Shown here: piece by piece, positions 5,375 through 56,360 of the stretch
How positions within the stretch are numbered: the stretch's first letter is position 1
Layout of the letters: each line of letters starts with the position of its first letter
Assembly (NCBI GenBank): GCA_965215565.1
Contig: CBDCDZ010000004.1
Span: 2,560,001-2,624,000 of the forward strand
Length of the DNA: 64,000 nucleotides
Reading direction: 5' to 3'
DNA from: Trueperaceae bacterium
Lineage (GTDB): Bacteria; Deinococcota; Deinococci; Deinococcales; Trueperaceae
Notes under the pieces: generated by a model
Seen by the model: the letters and a program-made list of their open reading frames with translations, nothing else
What the model was told of the DNA's origin: nothing
The model's database searches: none
Made by a program: the position numbers and the translations under genes

Positions 5375-5528
5375 TAGCACTTCCAAAACATATTGAGATA
5401 GGGTGCCGCAGGTCTCAGCGAAGCTAGCGGGATTTCACCTCACAACGTGCGTGCTAATTACGAAGTTTTCACGCAGTGAAACAGTGTTTTCTACAGTGAG
5501 GGTGTTTCAGACCAGATAATACCTGCTA
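5375..5528 (-). mobile_element. MITE-like element copy 1 (111-bp unit plus 23-nt and 20-nt inserts)
   Basis: Reverse complement starts TAGCAGGTATTATCTGGTC and ends TGGAAGTGCTA. It is nearly identical to 11412-11565. Confidence 0.8.
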
Positions 5529-5609
5529 CATGTAACAAGGGCTTACTGAGTATCGCTCACTGTTCCTCGCACCGCCTTCTTCGCCCGGTAAAACAGCGAC
5601 AATAGCGCT

Positions 5610-5978
5610 ATGTCTTTCAACCTCTTCTTTATCCTCCACGGAATCGTCACGCTCCTAACCGCCGTTACCTTTTTATTTGCGCCGGGCGTCATGCTCGTCC
5701 TCTTCGGCACGCCCGCGAACCCCGCCATCAACCTCGTCACGCAGCTTTTGGGCGCGGCGTTTTTGGGCATCGGCGGCGTCGCGTTAGCGGCGGGGCGCAT
5801 CGGCAGCGCTGAGTTTAAGCGCACCGCCGCACTGGTTCTACTCGTCGCCAGCGTGATGGGCTTTATCGTCAGCATCATCGGGCAGTTTCGCGGCGTGACG
5901 GGTCCGGTGGGCTGGGGCGCGGTGCTGATTTACGGAACGCTCACGGTGGGGTACAGCATATTTCTAATGAGAGACTAA
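5610..5978 (+). CDS. Small integral membrane protein (4 TM)
   Basis: 122-aa hydrophobic ORF. Confidence 0.65.
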   Translation: MSFNLFFILHGIVTLLTAVTFLFAPGVMLVLFGTPANPAINLVTQLLGAAFLGIGGVALAAGRIGSAEFKRTAALVLLVASVMGFIVSIIGQFRGVTGPVGWGAVLIYGTLTVGYSIFLMRD

Positions 5979-6328
5979 CCTCTCGCCCAGGTCCGCGCCT
6001 GTCCCTCTTCCTCCGGCCCAAAGGTTTTCACTTTGGCTTCGGTAAGAGGTGAAGCAAGCTCAGTTGCCGCGTCTTCCCAGCTTTCGTCTCCGACCACGGC
6101 GACTTTCTCGAAATCGTTCAGGTGCTTCGCGTCGAACTTGAGGTCTTCCCATAAGGCTCCGGGCGTTGCGCCTTCAAACTGGGTGATGTCTAAAAGTAGC
6201 CTGACCTTGCCGTGCTCTTGGATAAGCTCCTCGAGCCTCGGCACCACCCGTTCGTAATCCTCTTCGCTCACCTTACCGTCGGTGCGAATCACCGCGAGTT
6301 TAGGCGCTTCGATACTGAGTTCGTACAT
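5975..6328 (-). CDS. SpoIIAA-like (STAS/SEC14) protein
   Basis: ALWEDLKFDAKH..FEKVAVVGD..W pattern, with SD GGGGAG before ATG 6328. Confidence 0.8.
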   Translation of the reverse strand: MYELSIEAPKLAVIRTDGKVSEEDYERVVPRLEELIQEHGKVRLLLDITQFEGATPGALWEDLKFDAKHLNDFEKVAVVGDESWEDAATELASPLTEAKVKTFGPEEEGQARTWARG

Positions 6329-6415
6329 ACTCTCCCCTTTCGTACTCATGTTAAAGCGCCGCCACTGACTTGACTGCGGCGCAAACGTAGAAGCGTCAGG
6401 CGGAGCGTTCTCTCG

Positions 6416-6766
6416 TTACGAACGGATAGGTTTGTTAGCTGGGCTCGCCAACGTCTCTATCTGGTCAGCGTCACCGCAGGTTTGGCCTATTTCAGCGAGC
6501 CGCACCTGTACCTCGCTGACGAGGCGGGCAAAACGGTCCACTTCGCCTACGACGCGCTGTAAGTTGCGCTCGGGGCTCGAGTCGCCGCTGTAGTTTTGAA
6601 GAATGATGTTGACCAGGCACCGCGCCGCTTCCTCTTCTAAAGAGGCGGCGCGGCTTGGGTCAGGACCTACGTCATCGTAGGCGCATCTAAAAAAATCACT
6701 CGGGTAGGTTTCGTCGATAAGGTATATCAGCGTATCTAACAAATAGGTATTGTGGTACTTACGCAT
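6416..6766 (-). CDS. Hypothetical protein
   Basis: 116-aa ATG-initiated ORF with no recognisable motif. Confidence 0.5.
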   Translation of the reverse strand: MRKYHNTYLLDTLIYLIDETYPSDFFRCAYDDVGPDPSRAASLEEEAARCLVNIILQNYSGDSSPERNLQRVVGEVDRFARLVSEVQVRLAEIGQTCGDADQIETLASPANKPIRS

Positions 6767-6821
6767 AGCCCTAAGTCTGCCATTTTTGGTGCGGAAACGA
6801 TGTTCTCTTTCTTACTTTGTA

Positions 6822-6954
6822 TAGCAGGTATCATCTGGTCAGCTACACTCTATACTTACAGGAACATCGTTTCCTAACGGAAAACTGCGTAATTAGCACG
6901 CATTCTAAGGGATGATATCTGCGAAAAGTGTAGCAATGAAACGTAGAAGCGCTA
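6822..6954 (+). mobile_element. MITE-like element copy 2 (with 22-nt insert)
   Basis: TAGCAGGTATCATCTGGTC...GCACGCA...GATGATATCTGCG...GAAGCGCTA. Confidence 0.8.
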
Positions 6955-7057
6955 GTAATTAGATTCACATAAAGACGAGGGGCTAGAGCGCCACAATCTC
7001 TCGCGGCAATGTCAGTACTGCTCTAATCTCAACACTTCAAATCGCCTAAAGTTGGGC

Positions 7058-7711
7058 ATGACGAAACTTTTGGTAACAGGCGGCAATGGGTTTATCGGCG
7101 GTGAAGTCTGCAAAGTTGCGCTACAAAGAGGGTGTGAGGTCATCGGCGTAGCGCGGAGCGGTGGACCTGACCTAGACGAGCCCTGGGTAAAAGAGGTCAC
7201 GTGGGTCAAAGCGAACGTCTTAGAGCCCAACCTCTGGCGAGCCCACCTAGCGGGTTGTGACGCGGTAGTCCACTCTATCGGCATCCTCAAAGAGCAGCCG
7301 GATAAGGGCGTGACCTTCGAGCGCATCAACGGCGACACCGCTATCGTCGCAGTAGAAGAGGCGGAGCGAGCGGGCGTAAGCGCGTTCGTGTTCGTGTCCG
7401 CCTCCACCACGCCGCCGACAGTGGACGGAGCCTATCTAGAGCATAAGCGCCGCGCCGAAGAAGAGATCGCGAAAAGAAGTCTGCGCCCCGTCATCTTACG
7501 CCCGTCGCTCGTGTACGGCTCTAGACGCCCTCTCTCCAACGTCGTCGGCAAGGCAGTTGAGTTCGCGCAAAAAATCCCTGGCGTTTCCAAAGAGGACAGC
7601 CCAATGTCAGTCGAGACCTTGGCGAAGGCGGCAGTCAACGCCGCACTTCGAGAAGAGGTCAGCGGAATTCTGGATGTGGGCACAATTGAGGCGTTGGGGA
7701 AAGATAGTTAA
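7058..7711 (+). CDS. NAD-dependent epimerase/dehydratase (NDUFA9-like SDR)
   Basis: Motifs TGGNGFIG, YxxxK and RPSLVYG. Confidence 0.85.
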   Translation: MTKLLVTGGNGFIGGEVCKVALQRGCEVIGVARSGGPDLDEPWVKEVTWVKANVLEPNLWRAHLAGCDAVVHSIGILKEQPDKGVTFERINGDTAIVAVEEAERAGVSAFVFVSASTTPPTVDGAYLEHKRRAEEEIAKRSLRPVILRPSLVYGSRRPLSNVVGKAVEFAQKIPGVSKEDSPMSVETLAKAAVNAALREEVSGILDVGTIEALGKDS

Positions 7712-7712
7712 A

Positions 7713-7780
7713 AGCAACGAGCAATGAGCAATGAGTCTAAAGATTTTTACTCATTGCTCATTGCTCGTTACTCATTGCTC
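7713..7780. repeat. Inverted heptamer array (GCAATGA)n / (TCATTGC)n
   Basis: GCAACGA GCAATGA GCAATGA...CTCATTG CTCATTG, between convergent genes. Confidence 0.85.
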
Positions 7781-7782
7781 TT

Positions 7783-8607
7783 TTATGCAACTACCCGCTT
7801 ACGCATCCGCCACACGCTAAAGGCGCAGAGCGCCGCGCCCACCCCTAAGAGGTACAGCGCACTCCAGGCGAGCCCCGCCACCTCGCCGTTCACGACGCCG
7901 CGCAGAAGCTGAACACCGTGATAAAGAGGCGTCGCTTTGGCGAACGCCACCAAAAAACCGGGGAAACGCTCCTCGACGGGGAAGAAGATATCCGAGAAGA
8001 GAAAGGAGGGCGTGACGAACATGATGAAGAAGTAGGTGAAGAGGTCGATGCTTTTCACGACAGACGTAAATGCCAGACCGATGGCGGAGAAGCAGAAGCC
8101 CGTGAGGATGATGGCGAAGGGCGCGAGTAAGAGCCAGGGCGTGAGCGGTACGCCGAAAAAGAGCGTGATGAGAAGGAAGATGCCGCCGTACATCGCCGAG
8201 CGCGTCGTCGCCCAGAGCGTCTCCCCGATGACGACATCTTCCATATTCACACGAGTCGCCACCACCGCGTCATAAATCCTGTGAATATCGAGCTTGACGA
8301 AGACGTTATACGTCGTTTCGAAGACCGCACCGTTCATCGCGGAGGCGGCAACCAAACCGGGCGCGATAAAGGCGACGTAGCCGTTCTCAAAGGTGCCGCC
8401 GCCCGACACGTACGCCCCTAAGCCCACCCCGAGACCCAAGAGGTAGAAGACCGGCTCGAAGAAGTTCGGCACGAGCGAGTACATCCAGCGGTGCTTGTAG
8501 ACGCGGGCGTTGCGCTCCCAGACGCGCCACGCGCCCGTTAGAGAGATGAGCTTGCGGGAGCCGTAGCCGCCCTTTCGACTTGCCGAACCGAGTGAAGATT
8601 GTGCCAC
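7783..8607 (-). CDS. ABC-2 permease (NodJ-like)
   Basis: Motifs EPVFYLLGLGVGLG, YVAFIAPGL and TPLYHGVQLLR. A GTG start at 8607 has SD GAGG; the longer ORF-track start overlaps the next gene. Confidence 0.85.
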   Translation of the reverse strand: MAQSSLGSASRKGGYGSRKLISLTGAWRVWERNARVYKHRWMYSLVPNFFEPVFYLLGLGVGLGAYVSGGGTFENGYVAFIAPGLVAASAMNGAVFETTYNVFVKLDIHRIYDAVVATRVNMEDVVIGETLWATTRSAMYGGIFLLITLFFGVPLTPWLLLAPFAIILTGFCFSAIGLAFTSVVKSIDLFTYFFIMFVTPSFLFSDIFFPVEERFPGFLVAFAKATPLYHGVQLLRGVVNGEVAGLAWSALYLLGVGAALCAFSVWRMRKRVVA

Positions 8608-8674
8608 TTGATACCTCTTTAACTTCCGTGCAATTTTGTTACTTCTCAATACCTCTTGACCTCGCTCAACGAAT

Positions 8675-9235
8675 TCACAGATTGAACGACCTATCTCCGA
8701 ACAGATACGTCGGCTTACCGTCCAAACTGACCTCATTCTTTTCGCGCCTATAGTCTACGAGCTTCGCCTCACCCTTGCGCTCTGCCCACCGGATGAGGTC
8801 ATCGCGCTCACTCACGTAGTCGAAGAAGGGAACGCTCATTCCGCAAGAGGTCTGCACCAAGTCAACGTTCAGGTCGAAGATTTGGCGCGTGCCGGGCAGG
8901 TCAGGAAAGAGGCCCGCGAGGTCAGACCAAGCCGCGTCTCTAGGATGAACTACCTCAGCCTGTCCGTAGAGCCGTAAGATCATCGGGCGGCCCTCAAAGG
9001 CGCAAAACATGAGGGTCATGCGGTTGGTTTCGGCGACGTGCGCGGCGCTCTCATTGCCGCTGCCCGTGACGCTGAGCCAGACCACGCGGTTTGGACTGAG
9101 TACACGCAGAGAGTCCATCCCCTTGGGTGAAATGTTGACGCGCCCGTCACAGCTCGCTGTGCCGACAAAGAAGAGGTTTTGCGCCTCGATAAAGGTTTGG
9201 TGGACGCTGCTTATCTGCTCATACTGCTTACCCAT
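8675..9235 (-). CDS. Pyridoxamine 5'-phosphate oxidase-like FMN-binding protein
   Basis: Motifs VNISPKG, TGSGNE, MFCAFEG.P.ILRLYG and VQTSCG. Confidence 0.85.
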   Translation of the reverse strand: MGKQYEQISSVHQTFIEAQNLFFVGTASCDGRVNISPKGMDSLRVLSPNRVVWLSVTGSGNESAAHVAETNRMTLMFCAFEGRPMILRLYGQAEVVHPRDAAWSDLAGLFPDLPGTRQIFDLNVDLVQTSCGMSVPFFDYVSERDDLIRWAERKGEAKLVDYRREKNEVSLDGKPTYLFGDRSFNL

Positions 9236-9246
9236 GATGCCTCCTT

Positions 9247-9314
9247 AGTTGAAAGCAATGAGCAATGAGCAGAAGGTTCTAGACTCGTTGCTTTCAACTC
9301 ATTGCTCATTGCTA
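9247..9314. repeat. Inverted heptamer array
   Basis: AGTTGAAAGCAATGAGCAATGAG...CTCGTTGCTTTCAACTCATTGCTCATTGCT. Confidence 0.85.
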
Positions 9315-9315
9315 T

Positions 9316-10290
<975 letters not shown>

Positions 10291-10924: not shown

Positions 10925-10937
10925 CTTTTCAGGTATA

Positions 10938-11047
10938 TAGCAAGTATCATTTGGTTTGAAACGCTCTCACGATGTAGAACACTGTGCAGCACGCACATTT
11001 GAGAATGATACTTGCGCTATTCCAATCAGTACTCATGTTAATTGCTA
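10938..11047 (+). mobile_element. MITE-like element copy 3 (no insert)
   Basis: TAGCAAGTATCATT...AATGATACTTGCG...TCAGTA...AATTGCTA, with a compensatory CAAG/CTTG change. Confidence 0.8.
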
Positions 11048-11068
11048 TAACTAGCGCGAGGAGGCGTT

Positions 11069-11411: not shown

Positions 11412-11565
11412 TAGCACTTCCAAAACATATTGAGACAGAGTGCCGCAGGTCTCAGCGAAGCTAGCGGGATTTCACCTCACAACGTGCGTGCTAATTACGA
11501 AGTTTTCACGCAGTGAAACAGTGTTTTCTACAGTGGGGGTGCCTCAGACCAGATGATACCTGCTA
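11412..11565 (-). mobile_element. MITE-like element copy 4 (two inserts)
   Basis: About 6 mismatches over 154 bp relative to copy 1. Confidence 0.85.
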
Positions 11566-12208: not shown

Positions 12209-12210
12209 CT

Positions 12211-13304: not shown

Positions 13305-13460
13305 TAGCAGGTATCATCCGGTCGGAGACACTCTCGCTTTGTAAAACGATGTTTCCTGCGGAAAACTGCGTAACTGGCACGCACTTTGAGGGATGAAATC
13401 CCGCTAGCTCTGCGAGCTGAGACCTGTACTCATCCGTCTCAGTATGTCTTGGAACTGCTA
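13305..13460 (+). mobile_element. MITE-like element copy 5 (21-nt and 24-nt inserts)
   Basis: TAGCAGGTATCATCCGGTC...TGGAACTGCTA; 111+21+24 = 156 bp. Confidence 0.85.
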
Positions 13461-14345: not shown

Positions 14346-14456
14346 GAACGCTCTTTAGAGTCGCTGAGCTTGAATCACGCAGGTATCATTCTATCGCTTG
14401 CGAGCTAAACAATACTTTATCTGCTGGGAGCGTTGATGACCAGATGATACCTGCTG
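14346..14456 (-). mobile_element. MITE-like element copy 6 (no insert)
   Basis: Reverse complement CAGCAGGTATCATCTGGTC...AATGATACCTGCG TGATTCAAGCTCAG; the tail is shared with copy 11. Confidence 0.8.
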
Positions 14457-19264: not shown

Positions 19265-19365
19265 TAGCAAGTCTCAGCCGTGAGGCTAGCGGGTTTTCCT
19301 CTGGTCACAAAGGCCCTTAGCCGTTAAAGTACTGCAAGAACACGCACTATTAAATGATACTTGCG
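19265..19365 (+). mobile_element. MITE-like element copy 7 (insert in left arm, tail diverged)
   Basis: TAGCAAGT[CTCAGCCGTGAGGCTAGCGGGTT]...CTGGTC...CACGCAC...ATGATACTTGCG. Confidence 0.7.
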
Positions 19366-20198: not shown

Positions 20199-20274
<76 letters not shown>

Positions 20275-20408
20275 GAGATTGGTATCATCAATCAACAAAC
20301 GCAACCACTTGAAACAGCGGCGCTTGCTATTCTCAGATACCATGTCGTTCTTACGTATAAATAAGAGGCGCTACCCAAAGGGCAACACCTCATTAGTTTT
20401 GAAATAAA

Positions 20409-20526
<118 letters not shown>

Positions 20527-20612
20527 AAAAAATAAGAGAGGTATCATCTCATACCAGAAACCTCAGAGTTGCGACAATGACGAATAAGAGTGATTGAAAA
20601 TTAGTCCAGAAT

Positions 20613-23538
<2,926 letters not shown>

Positions 23539-25955: not shown

Positions 25956-26066
25956 TAGCAGGTATCATCTGGTTATAAACGCTCCCACTGAGATTGGCGC
26001 AAATTGGCACGCAAATTAAGGGATGATGCCTGCGCTAACCTGTCCCGGTAGAAGCGCTAACCGCTT
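25956..26066 (+). mobile_element. MITE-like element copy 8 (no insert), in the suf leader
   Basis: TAGCAGGTATCATCTGG...GCACGCA...GATGATGCCTGCG...AACCGCTT; 111 bp. Confidence 0.8.
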
Positions 26067-29891: not shown

Positions 29892-29895
29892 GAAG

Positions 29896-29990
29896 TAGCG
29901 AGCAATGAGTAACGAGCAATGAGCAAAAGCCTTTAGACTCACCGTTCGTCCAGCTTGACTGGATTGCTCGTTGCTTTCAACTCATTGCTC
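29896..29990. repeat. Inverted heptamer array with a 22-nt insert
   Basis: GCAATGA units; CTCA[CCGTTCGTCCAGCTTGACTGGA]TTGCT. Confidence 0.85.
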
Positions 29991-39528: not shown

Positions 39529-39684
39529 TAGCAGGTTACTTCGTATAGCTTCGCTCAATCATCTGGTCAGCGATACTCTCACCGTGCGAGCTGCTGTCTA
39601 GCACGCACATTATAAGATGAGGTTCCGCTATTGCTGCGCAATGAGAACTGCGGCATCCTGTCTCAGTATATTGTGGAACTGCTG
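39529..39684 (+). mobile_element. MITE-like element copy 10 (21-nt and 24-nt inserts)
   Basis: TAGCAGGT[TACTTCGTATAGCTTCGCTCA]ATCATCTGGTC...GTGGAACTGCTG; 111+21+24 = 156 bp. Confidence 0.8.
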
Positions 39685-41153: not shown

Positions 41154-42614
41154 CTAAGGAGAGCGCCGCCCAAATGTTCTCCTTTTAGGCAAACTCCAGA
41201 AGTCACGGTTGAAAATGATGAAAACCGTGACGACTTCTAAGCGCCCCGCGTACATCGCGAAGATGAGCAGTGCGCGGCTCACGGGGTGAAGGTCAGCGTA
41301 GTTGAGCATCGGACCTACCTCGCCCAACCCCGGACCGACGTTGCCCAAACAGGCAATCGACGCGGTGAGCCCCGTAACGATGTCCGCGCCAAGCCAGATG
41401 ACGACTCCGGCGATCACGGCGAAGAGACTCAAGTAGAGCGTCAGAAAGGCGGCGACAGCGCGGAGCACCTCCTCTTCGACCGGGCGTCTCCCGACGCGCA
41501 CGGGCAGAACCGCTCTAGGACGAAGCGCCCGCTGCACCTCGCGGTTCATATTGTGCGCGATGATGATCCAGCGGATCACCTTCACGCCGCCCGCCGCGCT
41601 GCCCGCGCTGCCGCCCACGAACATGAGCACCAGGAGGACCATCTGCCCCTGCTGCGACCACTCGATGAAATCCACAGAAGCGTAGCCCGTCGTCGTCATG
41701 ATGCTGATGGCTTGAAAGAGCGCGTGGCGCAGCGCCTCGGCGAGAACGTAGTCGCTCCTCAACGTAAGGGTTAGGAGGAGCGCGGCGACGGCTAAAATGC
41801 CCAGGTAGACGCGGAATTCCACGTCGTGTAGGAGGTCTTTAGGGCGTCCCGCAAAAAACTGATACTGCAGCGCGAAGTTCACTCCGGCGATCGTCATGAA
41901 GAGGATGGCGACCCACTGGATAGCCGGGTTGAACCCTTGGTAGGACAGAGGTTCCGGGCTAAAGCCGCTCGCCGCGAGCGTCGTAAAGGTGTGCGCTACC
42001 GCGTCATAGGGCGTCATGCCGGCGAGCCAGTACGAAAAGCCGCAGAGAACGCTGAGCCCCACGTAAACGATGAGCACAGCGCTCGCCGTGCTGCGCAAGC
42101 GTGGCGTGAGCTTCTCTTCAGAAGGACCGGGCGCTTCGGCGAAGAAGAGCTGCCGCCCCGCAATGGCGAGCTGCGGAAACACCGCGATAAAGAGCACAAT
42201 GATGCCGATGCCGCCCAACCACTGTGAGAGAGAGCGGTACAAGAAGAGGCTGCGAGACACCTCGCTGAAGTCGCGCAGCGCCGTCGCACCCGTCGCGGTA
42301 AAGCCGCTCGTCGATTCGAAAAGTGCGTTGAGCGGCGTGAACGCTTCCGACGCGGCGTAGGGGATCATCCCGACGAGCGGCAAGACGAGCCAGAGCAGCA
42401 AAACACCCGTGAGCGCCTCGCGCCGCGTCGGTCCGGCGTCGCTCGTGCCGAGCCACACGAGGACGCTGCCCATAGAGGCGGACAGGGCACACGTCACCGC
42501 GAAGCCTGAGACATTCTCGCCGAGCAGAAGGGCGTAAACGCAGAAGAAGAGCGTGATAACCGCCAGACCTAGTAAACCGAGACCGACGATGTAGGGAGCG
42601 AAACGTCCGCGCAC
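41154..42614 (-). CDS. trkH: TrkH K+ uptake channel, paralog 2
   Basis: Four pore motifs (TATG, ASGF, TTGY, NVGPG) and GRLE; TAATCT-N5-GTG. Confidence 0.92.
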   Translation of the reverse strand: MRGRFAPYIVGLGLLGLAVITLFFCVYALLLGENVSGFAVTCALSASMGSVLVWLGTSDAGPTRREALTGVLLLWLVLPLVGMIPYAASEAFTPLNALFESTSGFTATGATALRDFSEVSRSLFLYRSLSQWLGGIGIIVLFIAVFPQLAIAGRQLFFAEAPGPSEEKLTPRLRSTASAVLIVYVGLSVLCGFSYWLAGMTPYDAVAHTFTTLAASGFSPEPLSYQGFNPAIQWVAILFMTIAGVNFALQYQFFAGRPKDLLHDVEFRVYLGILAVAALLLTLTLRSDYVLAEALRHALFQAISIMTTTGYASVDFIEWSQQGQMVLLVLMFVGGSAGSAAGGVKVIRWIIIAHNMNREVQRALRPRAVLPVRVGRRPVEEEVLRAVAAFLTLYLSLFAVIAGVVIWLGADIVTGLTASIACLGNVGPGLGEVGPMLNYADLHPVSRALLIFAMYAGRLEVVTVFIIFNRDFWSLPKRRTFGRRSP

Positions 42615-42684
42615 GTCTCAGATTACCTTGTGAGGGGGAGGCAGTAGGCGCTTTCGTACCCCAACAAGGACGAGCGAACGTGCT

Positions 42685-44148
42685 TCACAAGCGCCGCCGC
42701 TGAAAGGCTCCGCGTTTGGGCAGCCGCCAGAAGTCGCGGTTAAAGATGATGAAAACCGTTACAACCTCCAAGCGCCCCGCGTACATTGCGAAAGCGAGCA
42801 GCCCACGGCTGACCGGGTGCAAGTCCGCGAAGTTGAGCATCGGTCCCACCTCGCCCAGCCCCGGACCAACGTTGCCCAAGCAGGCGATAGACGCGGTGAC
42901 GCCCGTGATGATGTCTGCACCCAGTAAAATAACGATCACCGCGATAACAGCAAAGAGGCTCATGTAGAGCGTCAGAAAGGCGGCGACGGCGCGGAGCACC
43001 TCTTCGGAGACCGGGCGGCCGCCGACCTGGACGGGCAGAACTGCCCTGGGGTGGAGGGAGTGACGCACCTCTCTCGCCATGTTGCGCGTGATGATAAGCC
43101 AGCGGACCACCTTCACGCCACCTGCCGCGCTGCCCGCGCTGCCGCCTATGAACATGAGCACCAGGAGAACGGCTTGCCCCTGCTGCGACCACTCGACGAA
43201 ATCCACGGAGGCGTAGCCCGTCGTTGTAGCGATGCTGATCACCTGAAATAGGGCGTGACGCAGCGCCTCGAAAAACGCATAATCCTCCCTCAAGATAAAG
43301 GTGAGCAGCGCTGAAGCGCCCAGCAGGATCGTGAGGTACGCCCGGAGTTCGGCGTCGCGAAAGAGGTCACCGGGGCGTCCCGCGACTGCCCGGTACTGCA
43401 GCGCGAAGTTCGCCCCAGCAAAGGTCATAAACAAGATCGCGACCCAGTCAGTAGCAGCGCTGTCAAACCCCTCGAACGAGAGCCCGTTCGGGCTGAAGCC
43501 GCCCGCCGCGAGCGTCGTGAACGAGTGCGCCACCGCGTCGTAGGGCGTCATGCCGACGAGCCAATAGGCGAGCGCGCAGAGCACGCTAAGCCCGACATAT
43601 ACAATAAGCACCGCGCCCGCCGTGTTGCGCAGCCTCGGGGTGAGCCGCTCATCGGTGGGACCGGGCGCTTCGGCGAAGAAGAGCTGCCGCCCTGCGATGG
43701 CGAGCTGCGGAAACACCGCGATAAAGAGCACAATGATGCCCACACCGCCGACCCACTGCGTCAGGGCGCGCCACATGAAGAGGCTTTTAGGGAAGTCGTC
43801 GAAACTGCGCAGCACCGTTGCGCCCGTGGTGGTAAAGCCGCTCATGGATTCGAACATCGCGTCCAGCGGCGAAAAGCCACCAGAGATGATATAGGGGACT
43901 GCGCTGAACGCGGGCACAGCGAGCCAGAGCAGCAGCACGCCGATGAGCGCCTCGCGCCGCGTCGGTTCGGCGTCGCTCGTGCCGAGCCAGATGAGCACGC
44001 CCCCGAACGCGGTGGATAGCGCCAACGTCACCGCAAAGCCCGCGATACTTTCATCTAAAAGCGCCGCGTAAACGCAGAAGACGAGCATGACTGCAGCCAG
44101 GTTCAAGAGACCGATGCCGACGATGTAGGGAGCAAAGCGTCCGCGCAC
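42685..44148 (-). CDS. trkH: TrkH K+ uptake channel, paralog 1
   Basis: Pore motifs TTTG, AGGF, TTGY and NVGPG; TAATCT-N5-GTG. Confidence 0.92.
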   Translation of the reverse strand: MRGRFAPYIVGIGLLNLAAVMLVFCVYAALLDESIAGFAVTLALSTAFGGVLIWLGTSDAEPTRREALIGVLLLWLAVPAFSAVPYIISGGFSPLDAMFESMSGFTTTGATVLRSFDDFPKSLFMWRALTQWVGGVGIIVLFIAVFPQLAIAGRQLFFAEAPGPTDERLTPRLRNTAGAVLIVYVGLSVLCALAYWLVGMTPYDAVAHSFTTLAAGGFSPNGLSFEGFDSAATDWVAILFMTFAGANFALQYRAVAGRPGDLFRDAELRAYLTILLGASALLTFILREDYAFFEALRHALFQVISIATTTGYASVDFVEWSQQGQAVLLVLMFIGGSAGSAAGGVKVVRWLIITRNMAREVRHSLHPRAVLPVQVGGRPVSEEVLRAVAAFLTLYMSLFAVIAVIVILLGADIITGVTASIACLGNVGPGLGEVGPMLNFADLHPVSRGLLAFAMYAGRLEVVTVFIIFNRDFWRLPKRGAFQRRRL

Positions 44149-44753: not shown

Positions 44754-46361
44754 GTGTTTAGCAGTCTCTCCAGGTGGTTTCACGCTTTAACTCAGCCCCA
44801 GGCTACGCCAGAAACAACGGCTGAAACGCGAGCGGAAGGTGCGCGCGAGGCTATGTTCTGGCAGCGCGTTCTCGTCTGCGTGGGCTGCGGCGCGCTCCTT
44901 AGCGTGGCGCTACCCACGCCGAACCTCTGGATTTTCTTCACCATGCTCACGCCGCTCTTTATCTTGGTGGCGCATAGTTGCCGTGTCGGGGCGGCGTTCG
45001 GCTACGGCTTCTTCTTCGGCGTCGCCTGTTTCGCGCTGCACATCATCTGGTTGCCGCAGAGCTTCGCGGACCCCGAGGTTTATGGCCCCTTCTTCTGGGT
45101 GCTCTATCCCTTTTTGCTCACTATCTTGGGTTGCTTTTGGGGCGTTGTTACGGGTCTAAGTAGGCTCACCGGGCGAAGAGGTGCGGGCACGCTCGTGATG
45201 CTTCCCGCCCTATGGGTCTTGATGGAGTGGGCACGCTCGCAGGGGCTCTTCGCCTTTCCTTGGGGGACGCTCGGGTATATCTGGACGGATACGCCGCTGG
45301 CGCAGCTTACAGACGTTGCCGGTGTTTACGGGTTGAGCTTGTTGACGGCTAGCGCCGCGTCGCTGCTCGCGGTTCCTTTTGTGGTGCGTTCCGAGATGCC
45401 ACAGGTAGCTCGTTGGCTTCCGCCCGCGGGTGCAGCGCTACTCCTCGTTACCGGACTCGTTTACGGCTTAGTTAGGCTCGAGCCTCTTCCCCCAACACAC
45501 CAGAGCGCGTTACTCGTCCAGGGCAACACTGACCCCTTGAGCCGCGTTACGACGCCTGGTGGCGAGGTGGCGCTTTACGAGAGCCTGACGCAAGGGGGGG
45601 TGAGAGAGGCAGAAAACGTTCCCGACTTAGTGGTTTGGCCCGAAGGGGCGGCGCTCGAGGTTGACCTCTCGCAAGACGCTACCGCCGCCGCGCAGATTCA
45701 GCGGAGCGCGCTTCAGGCGAACGTCATCGCGGGGGGCGGGGCGAGAGACCCCAGACCGCAGTTCAGCTCCTATAACAGCGCCTTTAGCATCGCGGACGGT
45801 GAGGTCATAGACCGCTACGACAAAGTCTACCTAGTCCCTTTCGGCGAGGTCTTCCCTTTCATCGGTCCTTTGGAACCTCTTTACCGCTTTATCTTCGCGC
45901 AGCTCGGTCTACCCCTTTTGAGCAGCCGCCCGCCCGGTGACGAAGTTAGCGCTTTAAGGCTGCCCGATACAGATGCCGCCGTCTACATCTGCTACGAGTC
46001 GGTCTTTCCGCACGTCACGCGGCAGATGGTAGCGCAAGGGGCGGAGGTGTTAGTCAACATCTCCAACGACGCCTGGTTTGGGCGCGGGCAGGGGGCACGG
46101 CAGCACTTCGAGATGGGGAACATGAGGGCGATCGAGACGCGGCGCTACCTCTTGCGAGCGGGGAATGACGGGATTACCGCGCTCGTCAACCCTTTCGGGG
46201 AAGTAGAAGCCCGACTCCCAAGGGGTGTGCAGGATACCTTACTAGTGGATTACCGCTTGCGTGAAGGGAAGACGCTTTACGTGCGTTTCGGCGACGTACT
46301 CATCATCTTGCTCGCTGTTTTTGCACTTGGATTTGGCGTGTTGCAGGGAAAGAAGCAATGA
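44754..46361 (+). CDS. lnt: Apolipoprotein N-acyltransferase
   Basis: Motifs QGN, VWPE, YDK..LVPFGE, ICYE, SNDAWF and RA.E. Confidence 0.93.
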   Translation: MFSSLSRWFHALTQPQATPETTAETRAEGAREAMFWQRVLVCVGCGALLSVALPTPNLWIFFTMLTPLFILVAHSCRVGAAFGYGFFFGVACFALHIIWLPQSFADPEVYGPFFWVLYPFLLTILGCFWGVVTGLSRLTGRRGAGTLVMLPALWVLMEWARSQGLFAFPWGTLGYIWTDTPLAQLTDVAGVYGLSLLTASAASLLAVPFVVRSEMPQVARWLPPAGAALLLVTGLVYGLVRLEPLPPTHQSALLVQGNTDPLSRVTTPGGEVALYESLTQGGVREAENVPDLVVWPEGAALEVDLSQDATAAAQIQRSALQANVIAGGGARDPRPQFSSYNSAFSIADGEVIDRYDKVYLVPFGEVFPFIGPLEPLYRFIFAQLGLPLLSSRPPGDEVSALRLPDTDAAVYICYESVFPHVTRQMVAQGAEVLVNISNDAWFGRGQGARQHFEMGNMRAIETRRYLLRAGNDGITALVNPFGEVEARLPRGVQDTLLVDYRLREGKTLYVRFGDVLIILLAVFALGFGVLQGKKQ

Positions 46362-46420
46362 GCAATGAGTAAAACCCAGAAGCTTTTCCACTCATTGCTC
46401 GTTGCTTTCAACTCATTGCT
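46354..46420. repeat. Inverted heptamer array that supplies the lnt stop codon
   Basis: AGCAATGAGCAATGAGT...ACTCATTGCTCGTTGCTTTCAACTCATTGCT. Confidence 0.85.
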
Positions 46421-47138: not shown

Positions 47139-47261
47139 TAGCAATGAGCAATAAGCAATGAGTTGAAAGTGAAAAGCTTTTGGGGTTCACTCACCGTTCG
47201 TTCCTTCGGAAGCTAAAGCCACCAGCTCGACTGGATTGCTCGTTGCTCGTTCCTCATTGCT
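47139..47261. repeat. Inverted heptamer array with nested inserts
   Basis: CTCA[CCGTTCGT{TCCTTCGGAAGCTAAAGCCA}CCAGCTCGACTGGA]TTGCT. Confidence 0.85.
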
Positions 47262-47266: not shown

Positions 47267-48610
47267 CTAGCTAATCAACACCTCTTCCTCTGGATGCTTG
47301 ATGTCGCCTCCCCTGGGTTCTTGCACGATCGCAAGCGCGAACGTTAGAGGACCGACGCGCCCCAGATACATCAGCGCGATAACCACGAGCTGACCTATAA
47401 CGCTCAGCTCGCCCGTCGCGCCCATTGACAGCCCCACCGTGCCGAAAGCGGACATCGTCTCAAAGGCGAGCGGCAAAAGTTCGATACTTTCGGTGATGCT
47501 GAGCATAAAGAGCGCCGCGATGACGATACCGCTACTTAGCAAAACGACGGTGTCCGCTTTCATGGCGGTCTGCGTGCTGACGCGCCGTCCGAAAATAGTC
47601 AGCTCGCCGTAACCACGGACCATGCTCCAGGCACTCGCCGCGAGCACGAAGAACGTCGCCGTTTTGATGCCGCCCGCCGTCGAGCCCGGCGAGCCGCCGA
47701 TGAACATCAGCAGCATAGTGAAGATGAGCGTGGGGTTTTCCAGCGCGCCGATATCGACCGTGTTAAAGCCCGCCGTGCGCGGGGTGACGCCCTGGAAGAA
47801 CGCGCCCCAGAGTTTCGCGCCTAAGGGCAACTCGCCTAGCGTAGCGGGGTTGTTCCACTCGAGCGCTGCCACTACCCCAAAACCCAGCAAACAGAGCACC
47901 GCCGTCACGACCAAAACGATCTTGGTGTGCAGCGTCAGGCGGTTATGCCGCCTATTTCGCGCGTAGCCGATCAGGTTCACCTGCACGATAAAACCGAGCC
48001 CGCCCAAGATAAAAAGCCCAGTGATGACGATGTTCACAAGCGGATCGCCGACGAAGCGCGATAAGGAGTCGCCGTAAAACGCGAAGCCCGCGTTGTTCGA
48101 GGCGCTGATGCTGTGAAAGAGGGCGTAGAACGCGCCCGCGCCTGCGCCCTCCTCGGCGGCGAACGCGGGGTAGAGGAGCAGCGCACCGATGACCTCCACG
48201 CCCAGCGAGAGCAAGACGATATTGCGCACCAACTCCACCACGCCGCCCACCTGAAAGGCTTTGACCTGCTCCGCGACGCGCATCCTTTCGCCGAAGCCGA
48301 CGCGCCGCCCCAGCGCCAGCGCGAAGAGCGTGCCAAAGGTGATGAGCCCCAAACCGCCCAATTGAATCAAGATCATGATGACGCTCTGACCGAAGGGGCT
48401 CCAGGCGGTGCCCGTATCCACGACGATGAGCCCGGTGACGCAGAGCGCACTCGAGGCGGTAAAAAGCGCGTCCAGAAAGGTTAAATCTTCGCCCGGCGCG
48501 TGCGACCAGGGCAGCCACAAGAGGAGTGTGCCGATAAGCCCGGTGACGCCGAATGAAAGCGCGATGACCGTGGCGGGCGAGAGGGTTCTGCGGCGGGGAC
48601 GCCCGCTCAT
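47267..48610 (-). CDS. ktrB: KtrB-type K+ transporter membrane subunit
   Basis: Motifs CVTGL, NAGF, RTAGFN, GTVGLS and GR.GPLT. Confidence 0.9.
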   Translation of the reverse strand: MSGRPRRRTLSPATVIALSFGVTGLIGTLLLWLPWSHAPGEDLTFLDALFTASSALCVTGLIVVDTGTAWSPFGQSVIMILIQLGGLGLITFGTLFALALGRRVGFGERMRVAEQVKAFQVGGVVELVRNIVLLSLGVEVIGALLLYPAFAAEEGAGAGAFYALFHSISASNNAGFAFYGDSLSRFVGDPLVNIVITGLFILGGLGFIVQVNLIGYARNRRHNRLTLHTKIVLVVTAVLCLLGFGVVAALEWNNPATLGELPLGAKLWGAFFQGVTPRTAGFNTVDIGALENPTLIFTMLLMFIGGSPGSTAGGIKTATFFVLAASAWSMVRGYGELTIFGRRVSTQTAMKADTVVLLSSGIVIAALFMLSITESIELLPLAFETMSAFGTVGLSMGATGELSVIGQLVVIALMYLGRVGPLTFALAIVQEPRGGDIKHPEEEVLIS

Positions 48611-50225: not shown

Positions 50226-50240
50226 GGATTACACTAAGTT

Positions 50241-52333: not shown

Positions 52334-52339
52334 ACCTTA

Positions 52340-52450
52340 TAGCAGGTATCATCTGGTTTGAGCCAATCTCACTAGGTAAAACGTCGCGTAGCACGCACTT
52401 TAGGAGATGATATCTGCGTGATTCAAGCTCAGTACTTCTGATAACCGTTA
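52340..52450 (+). mobile_element. MITE-like element copy 11 (no insert)
   Basis: 111 bp, TAGCAGGTATCATCTGG...AACCGTTA. Confidence 0.8.
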
Positions 52451-52605
52451 TAGTTAAAGCGCACACTGAGACTAATAAGCGCAGATTTCACAGCTACTGT
52501 AACGGAACCTCATCCTTAAAGATGGCGCGTTAAGCGATTGTTTTTACAGTAAGCGCGTTTGTGACCAGCTCCGAACGTCAGTAGGACAGACTTTGATACC
52601 TGCTG
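52451..52605 (-). mobile_element. MITE-like element copy 12 (two inserts), tail-to-tail with copy 11
   Basis: Reverse complement CAGCAGGTATCA[~25 nt]CTGGTC...GATGA[GGTTCCGTTACAGTAGCTGTGA]AATCTGCG...TCTCAGT. Confidence 0.72.
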
Positions 52606-52625
52606 TGAGCCGCTATACTACCCTC

Positions 52626-53186
52626 ATGGGTGAAGCCGTCCTCAAGCTCCAACCTCTCTCCGAAGAGGCGTACCTCAGCCACGAACTTCACAGTGCGCTC
52701 AAGCATGAATATGTAGACGGGCAAATCTACGCCCTTGCAGGCGCAGCCGACCGGCACAACCTCGTCAGTATGAATGTCGCGGGCTACCTGTGGGGAGCGA
52801 GTCGCGGCGGTCCTTGCCGTGTCTACTCGAGCGACATGAAAGTGCGCGTTCAAACCGACCTCACGAACCGCTTCTACTATCCTGACGTGATGGTCACCTG
52901 TGACCCCAATGACACCGAGGATTACTTCAAAGTTTCGCCCTGCCTTATCGCCGAGGTGCTTTCGCCGAGCACCCAGGGCACCGACCGGCGCGAAAAGCTC
53001 TTCGCGTATCAGCGCATCCCTAGCCTAGACTACTACCTCATCGTCGAGCCGAATGAGCGTTTTGTCGAGCTGTACCGCCGTGACGAACGAGGTTGGTGGT
53101 ATCACGAATTTCGCGGTGACGGCGTTTTGAAGTTGGGGTGTCCTAAGCTCGAGCTGAGCCTAGAACAAATCTACGAAGGGCTCTAA
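52626..53186 (+). CDS. Uma2 family PD-(D/E)XK endonuclease, copy 1
   Basis: Motifs EYVDG...AG...H, YPD, EVLSPST...DR.EK..Y; TATACT-N6-ATG. Confidence 0.92.
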   Translation: MGEAVLKLQPLSEEAYLSHELHSALKHEYVDGQIYALAGAADRHNLVSMNVAGYLWGASRGGPCRVYSSDMKVRVQTDLTNRFYYPDVMVTCDPNDTEDYFKVSPCLIAEVLSPSTQGTDRREKLFAYQRIPSLDYYLIVEPNERFVELYRRDERGWWYHEFRGDGVLKLGCPKLELSLEQIYEGL

Positions 53187-53224
53187 GGTCATGAGGCGAA
53201 CCACAGCAGGTATATACTACCGTC

Positions 53225-53785
53225 ATGGGTGAAGCTGTCCTCAAGCTCCAACCTCTTTCTGAAGAGGCGTACCTCAGCCACGAACTTCACAGTGCGCTCA
53301 AGCACGAATATGTGGATGGACAAATTTACGCCCTCGCAGGCGCAGCCGACCGGCACAACCGTATCTCAGGCAATATCTTCTTTCGGTTGCGCGGCGCTGC
53401 GGGCGTTGAGCCTTGCCGCGTTTACATGAGTGACATGAAAGTTCGCATCCAAACCGACCTCACCAGCCGCTTCTATTACCCCGATGTGATGGTCACGTGC
53501 GACTCAGAAGATATAGAAGACTTCTTCAAAACTTCGCCTTGCCTCATCGCGGAGGTGCTTTCGCCGAGTACTCAAGGCACAGACAGGCGCGAAAAGCTCT
53601 TCGCGTATCAGAGCGTTCCTAGCCTGGACTACTACCTTATTGTAGACCCAGATGAGCGCTTTGTTGAATTATATCGGCGTGACGAAAGGGGCTGGTGGTA
53701 TCACGAGTTTCGTGAGGATGGCGTTTTGAAGTTGGGGTGTCCTAAGCTCGAGCTATCTTTAGAACAAATCTACGAAGGGCTTTAG
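53225..53785 (+). CDS. Uma2 family endonuclease, copy 2
   Basis: Same length and motifs as copy 1, with the same leaderless promoter. Confidence 0.92.
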   Translation: MGEAVLKLQPLSEEAYLSHELHSALKHEYVDGQIYALAGAADRHNRISGNIFFRLRGAAGVEPCRVYMSDMKVRIQTDLTSRFYYPDVMVTCDSEDIEDFFKTSPCLIAEVLSPSTQGTDRREKLFAYQSVPSLDYYLIVDPDERFVELYRRDERGWWYHEFREDGVLKLGCPKLELSLEQIYEGL

Positions 53786-54088
53786 ATGGCAACCAAACTC
53801 ACCTATCCGTATATAAGCACCAACCCCGAGATTGCCGACGGTGCACCGCTCATTGGAGGCACGCGCGTCACGGTTCGCACGGTGGCGGGCTACTATCAGA
53901 TGGGTATGACGCCCGACGAGATTCTCTTGTCGCTCCCTCACCTCACGCTCTCCCAGGTTCATTCCGCTCTGGCGTACTACTTTGACCATCAGCAAGAGGT
54001 GGATGAGGGTTTGAGGGCGGCGAGTGATGAGGAATACTGGAAGGGGCGAGTTAAAAGGCATCCTAAGTCAACGTCCGCCGACTTTTGA
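53786..54088 (+). CDS. DUF433 antitoxin-like HTH protein
   Basis: G.P.I.GTR..V..V......G.T.DEI....P.L....V..ALAYY. Confidence 0.9.
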   Translation: MATKLTYPYISTNPEIADGAPLIGGTRVTVRTVAGYYQMGMTPDEILLSLPHLTLSQVHSALAYYFDHQQEVDEGLRAASDEEYWKGRVKRHPKSTSADF

Positions 54089-54423
54089 ACGTCAAACTTC
54101 TTTCAGATGAGGACGTTCACGCCAGCTTAGCTGAAGCGTTGCGTAAACGTGGTTACGACGCAGTTCATTTGCAAGAGCTAGACCGTAAAGGATTGTCGGA
54201 CGCCGAGCAGCTTGCCTACGCTGCAGCGCAAGAGCGCTGCTTTATCAGCTTCAACATTAAAGACTTCGTACTTCTGCATAACCTTTACGTAACTGAGGAA
54301 AAGGAGCACTGGGGCATCTTAGTTTCTAAACAGCGTCCTGTTGGAGAGGTGCTGCGCCGCCTTCTCGCTCTTCTGCAGCCGCTCTCCGGTGAAAACACGG
54401 AAAACCATTTGGAGTTTTTGTAG
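54085..54423 (+). CDS. DUF5615 PIN-like (VapC45-type) toxin
   Basis: Motifs DE.V, D.EQL.YA....R...S.N..DF and H.GI; 4-nt overlap with DUF433. Confidence 0.85.
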   Translation: MNVKLLSDEDVHASLAEALRKRGYDAVHLQELDRKGLSDAEQLAYAAAQERCFISFNIKDFVLLHNLYVTEEKEHWGILVSKQRPVGEVLRRLLALLQPLSGENTENHLEFL

Positions 54424-54426
54424 AGG

Positions 54427-54465
54427 CTCGAGCTGAGCCTAGCGCAAATCTACGAAGGGCTCTGA
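54427..54465 (+). repeat. Third copy of the Uma2 3' end (39-bp direct repeat)
   Basis: CTCGAGCTGAGCCTAGCGCAAATCTACGAAGGGCTCTGA, matching 53148-53186 and 53747-53785. Confidence 0.88.
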
Positions 54466-54550
54466 TTAGCTGACCTAAAACACTACGCAGCTTGAGCCCG
54501 TTGATCTTTTAAGCCACTTGATCCATAATGCCGATCTTGGAGGTCTCAAG

Positions 54551-54847
54551 ATGGCTGATTTAACAGCAGTGGTTTACGAAGACGAGGGCGTGGTTTCTTG
54601 GGTCGAAGTCTACACGAGCGAAGAAGCGGCATATCAAGAGGTCATCATATATGTGCTGAGTCAGCTCGAGAAAGGATTTTATGTAGATTGGCGCAAAGAA
54701 TTAGAGGGGCGAACGCAGCATCCCGAGGATTTCCTCGACTACTTCAATGAAGTACAGCACATGGCAGACAAGTTCAGTTTTATCCACATAGAACCCGTAC
54801 GAAACAATCCTTTTGAGTCTACTAAAAGTAATGAAGAGGTTGGCTGA
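54551..54847 (+). CDS. Acidic hypothetical protein
   Basis: SD GGAGG before ATG 54551; 98 aa. Confidence 0.55.
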   Translation: MADLTAVVYEDEGVVSWVEVYTSEEAAYQEVIIYVLSQLEKGFYVDWRKELEGRTQHPEDFLDYFNEVQHMADKFSFIHIEPVRNNPFESTKSNEEVG

Positions 54848-54867
54848 GCGTCTTAGAAGCTCAAATG

Positions 54868-55635
54868 TTAATTTTTTACGTAGTGACCTCTCGAGAGAAA
54901 CGAGATATATCCCTTGTCCCGCAAAAACTGTAACTGCTGCCGAATCTTATCGCGGACGAAATTATTCTCAGGGTGAAGGGCTTGCAAATGCTCCTCGAAA
55001 GCGTAGACTTCTTCAAGTCGAAACTCTTTGTGAGGAATTTTCTCGAGACAGTCTAGTACATCTAGTAACCAACCTCTACTCTTCTGCGTTGCCTGTCTCA
55101 AAAAGGCTGTCTTTTGCCACTGGCTCAAAACATCTGCTTTAACTGCAACGTCCCGGTCCTTAATGTAGAAAATCCTGCCGCTCTCAGGAATAGCTTCAAT
55201 GACGATGTTGCAACCTTCCCAGCCTGCCCTTTTTGCGGTAAGAGGTAGCGGGTTTCTTTTTTCGATAATTCTCGAGGTGAAAAAGTGCTTGGGAATGATG
55301 AGGAAGTTTTTTACGTCGTAGCGCTGCATGTCGTAGGTCAGGAAGAAGAAGTTGGGGTTATCGTCCGAAGAGATGCGTTCAATCATGGACGCATATGCGC
55401 CATCTACGATTTTCTTGCCGGGGTTGCCCTTTTTGCTCTTTAGCTCGAACTGTTCCGCGCAACGAGCACAATAAAAATCTGCAACGGGGCGGTTGTTCGC
55501 GAAGTCGTTCAGATAGTCCTGTCCGCAGTTGGGACAATACGCATTACTCTGCACCCAAGCCTCGGTTAGCACTCGAGCAATCTGAGCTTTGCTTTTATAT
55601 CCTTCGGCTTTTCGCAAATCGAGTTGTAGCTTCAC
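54868..55635 (-). CDS. DpnI / Dam-replacing (Drp) family methyl-directed endonuclease
   Basis: Motifs YKS..Q.ARVLTE.W, CPNC, NN.PVADF.C..C..ELKSK, DGAY..M, RAGW.GC, and a winged helix with KIRQQLQ.LRD.G. Confidence 0.9.
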   Translation of the reverse strand: MKLQLDLRKAEGYKSKAQIARVLTEAWVQSNAYCPNCGQDYLNDFANNRPVADFYCARCAEQFELKSKKGNPGKKIVDGAYASMIERISSDDNPNFFFLTYDMQRYDVKNFLIIPKHFFTSRIIEKRNPLPLTAKRAGWEGCNIVIEAIPESGRIFYIKDRDVAVKADVLSQWQKTAFLRQATQKSRGWLLDVLDCLEKIPHKEFRLEEVYAFEEHLQALHPENNFVRDKIRQQLQFLRDKGYISFLSRGHYVKN

Positions 55636-55763
55636 GGATAAGGTCCTCAGAGTATCTTAACTAGAAACCTATTCCATAAAGAAGTGACATTTCTGACTTC
55701 CGCAAGCCCAAACCGGGGGAAGACCTCTTCAAACTCCGCTACAGCGTGGCGCTGTAAATCCAC

Positions 55764-55790
55764 AAAAAAGGACGAACCTAAGTTCGTCCC
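55764..55790 (-). terminator. trxA terminator
   Basis: Reverse complement GGACGAAC-TTAG-GTTCGTCC followed by a T run. Confidence 0.75.
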
Positions 55791-55810
55791 TAAAATGTGC
55801 AGGCTCGAGG

Positions 55811-56146
55811 CTAATTAACGCCCGCTCCCACATACTGGTTGATGCGCGACTCGTACGCGCCTTTGGGCTGCGCGCCTACCATCGTCTCGACGGGCTCGCC
55901 GTCTTTGAACAAGATGACCGTGGGGATGCTCATCACGCGGTAGCTCATCGCGGTCTGCTGATGGTCGTCCACGTTGAGCTTGCCCACTTTCACTTTGCCT
56001 TCGTAGTCGCCAGCGATCTCTTCGATAACGGGTCCAACCATGCGGCAAGGACCACACCAGGGAGCCCAGAAGTCTACCAGGACCAAGCCCTCTTGGGTCT
56101 CGTCTTTGAAGTTGCTGTCGGTGAATTCAACTGTGTTTTCTGCCAT
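55811..56146 (-). CDS. trxA: Thioredoxin
   Basis: WCGPC active site, with SD AGGAGG. Confidence 0.95.
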   Translation of the reverse strand: MAENTVEFTDSNFKDETQEGLVLVDFWAPWCGPCRMVGPVIEEIAGDYEGKVKVGKLNVDDHQQTAMSYRVMSIPTVILFKDGEPVETMVGAQPKGAYESRINQYVGAGVN

Positions 56147-56213
56147 GTTTCCTCCTGCCTATAGCGTAGATGAGGTGACTGAGAAAGTATGTCTTGCACT
56201 CTACGAAGCAGGA

Positions 56214-56360
56214 AGCAATGAGTTAAAAGCAATCCAGTCAAGCTGGTTATGTAATTTTGCGAAGCAAACGATTACGAAGTTTTCGCGGAGGCGAAACGGT
56301 GAGCAATGAGTAAAAGGCGTAGGTTTTCTACCTTCAACTCATTGCTCGTTGCTCATTGCT
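56214..56360. repeat. Inverted heptamer array with three nested inserts, overlapping the amidohydrolase 3' end
   Basis: Reverse complement CTCA[CCGT{TTCGCCTCCGCGAAAACTTCGTAA}TCGT{TTGCTTCGCAAAATTACATAA}CCAGCTTGACTGGA]TTGCT. Confidence 0.85.

Follow-up and report, generated by a model that had tools for sequence, protein, structure and literature searches.

How do non-coding elements of about 20 bases, without inverted ends, come to lie inside the other repeats of a bacterial chromosome? The question is raised by a 64,000-nt stretch from a Trueperaceae bacterium (GCA_965215565.1; G000:C4:2560001-2624000), here called the window. An initial annotation of it described small hairpin-forming inserts (types A, B and C, and an A-like type that we call E) in copies of a 111-bp miniature transposable element with inverted repeats (MITE) and in heptamer arrays. 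The source genome (G000) has 4.49 Mb, a G + C content of 58% and is essentially complete. Together with G001 and G002, from the same genus (g1) and with a gene identity of mostly ~75-88%, it is one of the three main carriers of these units. Our analysis shows very small mobile elements that were gained over and over at fixed sites. Further copies are proposed to come afterwards from transposition of the hosts and from gene conversion.

Unit families and their junctions

All inserts named A, B, C and E were recovered at their places in the window (Table 1). The lengths of two filled MITE copies, given as sums of host and inserts, hold, and type C units carry none, one or two further inserts, as had been described. 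The strict patterns matched five times for A, four for B, three for C and two for E, with means over 100 dinucleotide shuffles of 0.01, 0.01, 0 and 0.09, respectively. Across G000 the detectors counted 200 A, 176 B, 120 E and 36 D units, compared with 30, 53, 3 and 6 in the reversed genome. Without coding matches outside hosts, 189 A, 154 B, 116 E and 35 D were left (about 500 intergenic units). Further families were C (37 or more copies), F (40), G, H, J, K and L. The chromosome held 659 of the 660 element matches. The length gained was 20-25 nt for A, B, C and E, 17-27 nt for D and 27 nt for F.

The MITE host has the ends TAGCAG..CTGCTA, and 298 good copies were found out of 387 left ends. 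More than half (154/298) were filled, with one to four inserts each, at fixed positions near 8, 13, 23, 48, 72, 76 and 88. Other hosts were inverted heptamer arrays (AGCAATG family), several families resembling repetitive extragenic palindromic (REP) sequences, and the units themselves. Units are found in unrelated targets, with several flank contexts and host families, as the initial annotation had proposed to look for. Its rule that type A always follows GT was too narrow, as A also enters at CC-T-GCG, TT-T-GCG, CA-T-GCG and CC-T-TCG.

Several families replace a target base. At MITE position 72, empty copies had T in 108 of 115 cases, G in four and C in three; a T at either junction was found in 0 of the 76 B-filled copies. 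The same one-base loss was seen at the mirror site (A in 114/115 empties) and, for family H, at MITE position 13 (T in 115/115 empties). The base-losing families are B (also inside a reversed B), H and, each in its own context, G, J and L. Not every family obeys this rule: C and K insert flush, and a 2-base repeat borders F on both sides. A, D and E start with T and hence look flush. Of the un-nested A units at MITE position 76, 5/9 start with C, and 113/115 empties have T there. The precise insertion claimed for all types is thus retained, on its face, for C, K and most A, D and E units, and given up for the five base-losing families and these five A units. Type B was present at the places described, and is longer at its 5' end than had been drawn.

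Genome-wide, a lost base was the sole reading for 96 of 333 short-insert loci, a set which includes tandem-repeat noise; in 76 of the 96 the base was A/T. The G at position 72 of four in 115 empties, versus 0/805 at seven other invariant T positions (p = 2e-4), is as expected if loss of B leaves B's last base behind (a T-to-G scar). A rare G allele was rejected as the general explanation for B, since the loss of T recurs in several contexts that are unrelated.

Repeated gain in host copies and between species

Occupancy was followed on a tree of 238 insert-free MITE backbones, with 60 of the 298 copies left out for length and the junction columns masked. It changed 45, 43, 57 and 10 times at four sites, with shuffled-label means of 49, 52, 62 and 18. 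Among 105 pairs whose backbones had two or fewer differences, occupancy differed in 47, 35, 49 and 1 at these sites. Type A units fell into at least 20 flank clusters, and 7 of the 31 multi-copy A variants were found in two or more unrelated clusters. Nests run several levels deep, and one transposase reading frame contains an A unit. The units do not behave as single ancestral indels inherited with their hosts: occupancy is off the host tree, unrelated hosts were entered and the stems covary (see below).

The comparison with sister species covered 2.0 Mb from G001 and 0.4 Mb from G002, and gave 1.78 Mb of aligned columns with 262 clean indels, and 117 flank tests on 0.8 Mb thereof. Units differ between species at matching loci, the presence/absence polymorphism that had been anticipated: empty/filled pairs were found for four B, two E, one G and about four A units. 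In all four B pairs a single base was present in the empty genome and absent from the filled one. In the G pair the base in the empty genome was not T. One A unit was unchanged in both G000 and G001. By inspection, none of the 33 coding indels of 16-30 bases was a unit. The host repeats at matching loci mostly differed from species to species. Two public runs from one sample, as contigs only, gave a reading confounded by paralogous copies, and no RNA run was among those listed as holding the units.

Hairpins, loops and the proposed route of movement

A, D and E (class I) have a common design: T is followed by hairpin 1, zero to three bases, the small hairpin 2 and lastly a tail whose final base is A. 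In the initial annotation the A-like inserts were a hairpin plus a tail; the hairpin stands, and what was taken for a tail holds, in A and E, a second small hairpin. We analyzed 67 distinct un-nested units (144 copies) from the MITE alignments, with loops unconstrained. Both pairs of hairpin 2 were Watson-Crick in 63/67, with changes on both sides (AC/GT 50, GC/GC 8, AG/CT 3, AT/AT 1). The paired cells numbered 130/134, against a mean of 103 and a maximum of 112 in 2000 shuffles, a significance that is overstated since the copies are related. This agrees with the covariation of stems reported before.

The loops carry a one-strand signature. On the strand opposite to that of the initial annotation, hairpin-2 loops were GNA/GNNA in 65/67 units. 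B loops were GNA/GNNA in 51 of 87 variants and the reverse in one, and 13 of its 23 four-base loops were GNNA outside the RNA-type GNRA. The background in intergenic loops was ~7% each for three-base (203/3074) and four-base loops (204/3027). Of 191 E-layout units with T..A ends, 61 had TNC in both loops and none had GNA in both. In a screen of GCG-NNN-GC triloops, mini-hairpins came from GNA loops only, were exonuclease-resistant, bound single-strand binding protein poorly, and melted at 76.5 C as DNA versus 39 C for the RNA counterpart r(GCGAAAGC) (PMC13037366). We infer that the GNA strand may act as single-stranded DNA, because such loops are stable and resistant as DNA and far weaker as RNA. 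A UNCG RNA tetraloop was rejected as its closing pair is missing, and a likeness to integron attC sites was rejected as the motif order is reversed.

B folded with its own flanks more stably than with permuted flanks (0/60 permutations as stable). An arm variant able to pair with the mirror site was present in 4/16 variants there and 0/50 at the main site, these copies being related. Together, these are a weak hint of pairing between B and its target.

The units may be single-stranded DNA micro-transposons moved in trans by a nick-and-join enzyme, a reading which we favor over the others, yet hold to be evenly poised between right and wrong. A unit would travel as single-stranded DNA, probably the GNA strand, folded into nuclease-resistant mini-hairpins. 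The enzyme would join it into an exposed target strand, and the donor would be restored by replication. Other hairpin-forming repeats would serve as targets because they expose single strands. The target base (A on the GNA strand) may be cut away or exchanged during joining, leading to the one-base loss. HUH-type chemistry would be the closest known model, with no such enzyme assigned. A bolder version, which we hold to be less probable, is a "base-swap insertion": an enzyme of a kind not described before would put a single-stranded DNA mini-hairpin of 20-26 bases in the place of one nucleotide in a folded target, a T-to-G scar would stay behind on loss, and the same chemistry would underlie the Nostoc repeats and the Clostridia tandem units discussed below.

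Several results weigh against movement as single-stranded DNA. Among the enzyme families searched, we found no mover that is both common and special to the three main carriers. The search for Y1 transposases and REP-associated tyrosine transposases (RAYT) gave no match in G001 or G002, and the only match in G000 was a domain inside a restriction-modification gene. No gene was bordered by units in RAYT/REP fashion. Replichore bias was absent for A (99/184), B (74/150) and E (66/111). Flank pairing beyond permutation was not found for A and E, and the hairpin-1 loops of type A are less strict (GNA/GNNA in 36/69). HUH reactions as described in PMC8266576 offer no mechanism for the loss of one base. 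Junction rules vary by family, therefore one enzyme may not serve all families. Finally, conversion between host copies could inflate the change counts on the tree.

The co-occurrence with HUH/Y1 (RAYT), reverse transcriptase or IS110 enzymes that had been suggested was not borne out: each was checked, and none was specific to the three main carriers. Other candidate movers were rejected as well. A small GIY-YIG is an ordinary gene with the same neighbor in G000, G001 and G002, also present in non-carriers. The four-helix bundle was in 14/41 genomes and IS110 in 13/41, i.e., the three main carriers and 10 other searched relatives. Uma2, with 33-35 matches per genome of genus g1, is also expanded in G005, G018 and family f5. 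DUF559 was absent from G000, RtcB was not in G002, and tyrosine integrases and HNH were present in all five genomes searched. IS91 Y2 gave no match, in a search that had no control with a signal. None of the G000 proteins close to Nostoc plasmid proteins was suggestive. The genes flanked by units (28) were mostly ordinary-looking from their sequences. D alone was biased to a replichore (27/34), on a weak GC skew. The Y1/RAYT-like domain of G000 (G000:C4:3784709-3788675) lies in frame within a 1322-codon restriction-modification gene. The repeats that come after it, in translated form, belong to a palindromic family (window 31884, 33973, 38628) and are not the units.

Movement might also do without a dedicated enzyme. 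In that case host replication or repair, stalled at a target, would take a donor mini-hairpin as its template and then switch back, leaving out one base. We regard this as unlikely, even though it would fit the lack of a candidate mover common and special to carriers, and the targets are structured repeats. A one-base skip would be natural to lesion or gap bypass, and the T-to-G scars at the B site (4/115 vs 0/805) suggest slippage-type loss. However, unit ends are fixed across unrelated targets without shared flanks and the layout is strictly strand-asymmetric. Moreover, G210 has 73 copies of the MITE end and one E match, versus 60 in G000, which points to a lineage-specific factor. Similarly unlikely, in our view, are few true insertions, with each host site colonized once or a few times, followed by conversion or homing between host copies. 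The bulk of copies does sit at a handful of MITE sites, and the host tree is shallow, with shuffled labels needing only slightly more changes, as free exchange would give. The type A flank clusters and shared variants, the deep nests and the unit within the transposase frame speak against it, and each new context would still require a non-homologous step.

An RNA intermediate, cut from host-repeat transcripts and written back to DNA, had been left open beside single-stranded DNA by the initial annotation. The loops favor single-stranded DNA, and we consider the RNA route improbable. The hairpins would form in RNA too, G001 has reverse transcriptases, and heptamer hosts border genes for four-helix bundles, a family which we take to be related to Avd, the accessory protein of diversity-generating retroelements. 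Nevertheless, no reverse transcriptase was found in G000 or G002, and the loops are of the DNA-type GNA/GNNA. In most units the apparent UNCG of the other strand is not closed by a C-G pair, the covariation of closing pairs is that of a three-base loop, and the direction of neighboring genes shows no clear bias. Least credible of all is movement of the units by the bridge recombinase of the resident IS110. It is present in all three main carriers, aims in G000 at the same MITE, and has a core resembled by the 2-base repeat of family F. Its predicted donor guides, by inspection, match IS110's own ends and not the units; it is also in 10 other searched relatives, and the inspected copies of G001 and G002 are in other targets. 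A length of 20 bp is too short to form a circular double-stranded donor. Such a donor, matching the bridge RNA, is what IS110 requires (bioRxiv 10.1101/2024.01.24.577089).

Known systems, range and genomic setting

Small dispersed repeats (SDRs) of Nostoc are 21-27 nt long, lodge in heptamer arrays or minitransposons, and nest; SDR4-6 have a common two-hairpin fold with compensatory changes. An RNA route is said to have been suggested for them. The Trueperaceae units resemble SDRs in size, in lodging in heptamer arrays and miniature transposons, in nesting, and in the two-hairpin layout of E. In 0.8 Mb of Nostoc plasmid DNA we found 28 units of 21 nt (18 distinct) in HIP1 after GCGAT, with exactly the E layout: after T, 3 bp with a TNC loop, one base, 3 bp with a TNC loop, and two bases ending in A. 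On the other strand, their two loops were GNA in 16/18 and 15/18 distinct units. Another 18 units of E layout lay outside HIP1, always after T (selected for TNC loops). The Nostoc precedent named by the initial annotation thus holds for type E on this plasmid DNA. From the insertion site in HIP1 (PMC4390886), we infer that the HIP1 units are SDR5. Judged by its layout, E can be assigned to the SDR5 structural class. The Trueperaceae units differ by being in another phylum, by targeting MITE, heptamer and REP-like repeats instead of HIP1, and by having at least 10 families. B, G, H, J and L lack the E-type two-hairpin layout. In these five families a base of the target is also exchanged, in contrast to the precise insertion described for SDR5. 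No base-replacing unit was seen in the limited 0.8 Mb of Nostoc plasmid DNA.

With REP/REPIN sequences and their RAYT (TnpA-REP) the units share short strand-specific DNA hairpins, the absence of target duplication and a proposed single-stranded DNA intermediate (PMC8266576, PMC3116915). In contrast, they have no fixed GTAG 5' of the hairpin; in the four bases ahead of the first hairpin GAAG, GCAG, GTAG, GGAG and others alternate, with GNAG forming the loop of the second hairpin. They have no linked RAYT gene, enter other repeats at fixed bases, nest, and lose one base. IS200/IS605 and derivatives likewise insert flush without duplication, and element-target pairing is hinted at for B. However, the units have no fixed 4-5-base target (flanks vary), no separate left and right ends and no replichore bias, and TnpA/Y1 is absent from G001 and G002. 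Unlike non-autonomous derivatives of IS110, only F has a short core repeat, and the predicted guides match the IS110 ends instead. The loop motif is shared with the mini-hairpin DNA d(GCGNAGC)/d(GCGNNAGC), and exact GCGAAGC is E hairpin 1 on the opposite strand; in the available part of the source, such DNA is placed at phage and plasmid origins and at the N4 promoter, and a mobile element made up of it is not described (PMC13037366).

A literature search covering few subscription papers gave no description of such elements in Deinococcota, or of one-base replacement. The base-replacing families are thus an SDR-like variant for which no description was found, although Elhai et al. 2008 (Genome Res 18:1484; see also PMC5861425, PMC4390886 and PMC3116915) may already mention base loss or a loop bias. 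How 20-base non-coding elements without inverted ends move is a question that dates from the description of the Nostoc SDRs. This genome offers hundreds of copies, at least 10 families and matched empty sites. It also gives two mechanistic clues, the one-strand DNA mini-hairpin signature (also in Nostoc) and the exact one-base loss. With these, comparisons of genomes can be used to search for the enzyme, and oligonucleotides to test the reaction. If true, base-swap insertion would involve the smallest transposable DNA known and would be a natural reaction that inserts oligonucleotides at specific sites. An enzyme that trades a short oligonucleotide against a single base would represent new chemistry.

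Among 41 genomes, the A tail was enriched only in genus g1 (130, 60 and 84; controls 1-3). The E pattern was found in 6/301 genomes of the phylum (60, 18, 16, 5, 1 and 1, with 60 in G000), and the three E copies inspected outside the genus were at the same MITE sites. The MITE end is common in G210, which is nearly E-free and serves as a natural control, and in G005 (13 ends); therefore the host is older and wider than the insert burst. A GTDB pattern scan gave at least 97 stretches, 80 of which were listed; among these, all records with repeated true matches were Trueperaceae. Viral contigs had 30 pattern matches, none with an extended stem, which we took as chance. Tandem or nested units were also noted in two Clostridia records (L119, L181), with the class I layout, and in a Spirochaetaceae record (L182), with a hairpin and small-hairpin layout.

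Table 1 Units and host repeats located in the window.
Feature	Position	Strand	Remarks
Type A double-hairpin unit	5458..5481	-	Strand of the initial annotation, GNA loops opposite; restored T counted in
Type A unit	6870..6892	+	
Type A unit	11495..11518		In MITE 11412..11565
Type A unit	13352..13373		In MITE 13305..13460
Type B unit	5414..5434	-	In place of T at MITE position 72
Type B unit	11451..11471		In MITE 11412..11565
Type B unit	13397..13421		In MITE 13305..13460
Type B unit	39621..39645		In MITE 39529..39684
Type B unit, mirror arm	19273..19296	-	In place of A at MITE position 9; decayed MITE starting 19265
Type B unit, CCGTTA variant	52487..52509	-	Truncated MITE ending 52605
Type H unit	52569..52593	-	In place of T at MITE position 13; absent from the initial annotation
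Type E (A-like) unit	1751..1772	+	In another repeat host
Type E unit	39536..39557		In MITE 39529..39684
Type C unit	29942..29963	+	No inner insert; heptamer array 29892-29989
Type C unit	47194..47235	+	Encloses one E-like unit (47201-47221)
Type C unit	56233..56299	-	Encloses E-like (56247-56268) and A (56272-56296) units
MITE with one A and one B unit	5375..5528	-	154 = 111+23+20
MITE with one A unit	6822..6954	+	
Empty MITE	10938..11048	+	TA-duplicating subfamily; G001 without MITE at this locus
MITE with A and B units	11412..11565	-	
MITE with A and B units	13305..13460	+	156 = 111+21+24
Empty diverged MITE	14346..14456	-	Far end approximate
Empty diverged MITE	25956..26066	+	Far end approximate
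MITE with E and B units	39529..39684	+	
Empty MITE	52340..52450	+	
Empty MITE	58246..58356	-	
Empty inverted heptamer array	7705..7780		AGCAATG family
Empty inverted heptamer array	9246..9313		
Empty inverted heptamer array	46346..46420		

Terminal inverted repeats are present in the MITE host, and so is duplication of the target: among 273 complete copies, 144 had a 3-bp repeat, 75 a 2-bp (TA) repeat only and 54 neither. No autonomous partner was found among repeated elements >350 bp, and the sole long element with MITE ends was an IS110 that had entered a MITE. Seven near-identical IS110 copies occupy one site of this MITE (G000:C4 639261, 682174, 1227558, 1291539, 2530746, 3106157 and 4135953), with a TC core on both sides. 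The non-coding stretch upstream of IS110 is bridge-RNA-like: some of its segments match the left target, some are complementary to the right target, and some match the ends of IS110 itself. The G002 copies inspected were in another repeat family. An empty MITE at G000:C4:2000069 lies in an apparent coding sequence that is uninterrupted in G001. Inserts of ~103-104 bases at MITE positions 48-49 of two G000:C4 copies represent a second miniature element, with TAAGTA..TACTTA-like ends. At G000:C4 179865-179946, 1994360-1994432 and 546674, the MITE left end is present as tandem repeats of 19-27 bases, in up to four copies.

Heptamer arrays border four-helix-bundle genes in G001, G002 and G024, and the downstream array of G002 contains a type C unit. 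The window's gene-less arrays resemble such cassettes in an empty state. PF05635 four-helix-bundle genes between inverted short-tandem-repeat arrays were seen in L012, L013, L014, L016, L017 and L021. Our literature search found no paper on four-helix-bundle genes bordered by inverted repeat arrays.

A Pfam scan covered 40 of the window's open reading frames, and the Rfam families in the window were rRNA and tRNA only. Genes for tRNA-Gly, 5S and 23S rRNA lie at 20199-23537 on the minus strand, with no 16S reported in the window. A tandem pair of Uma2 genes, a DUF5615 gene and a DpnI-family gene were found at 52593-55635. Three TrkH potassium-transport genes were located at 41154-44148 and 47267-48610, two of them in tandem and ~80% identical.

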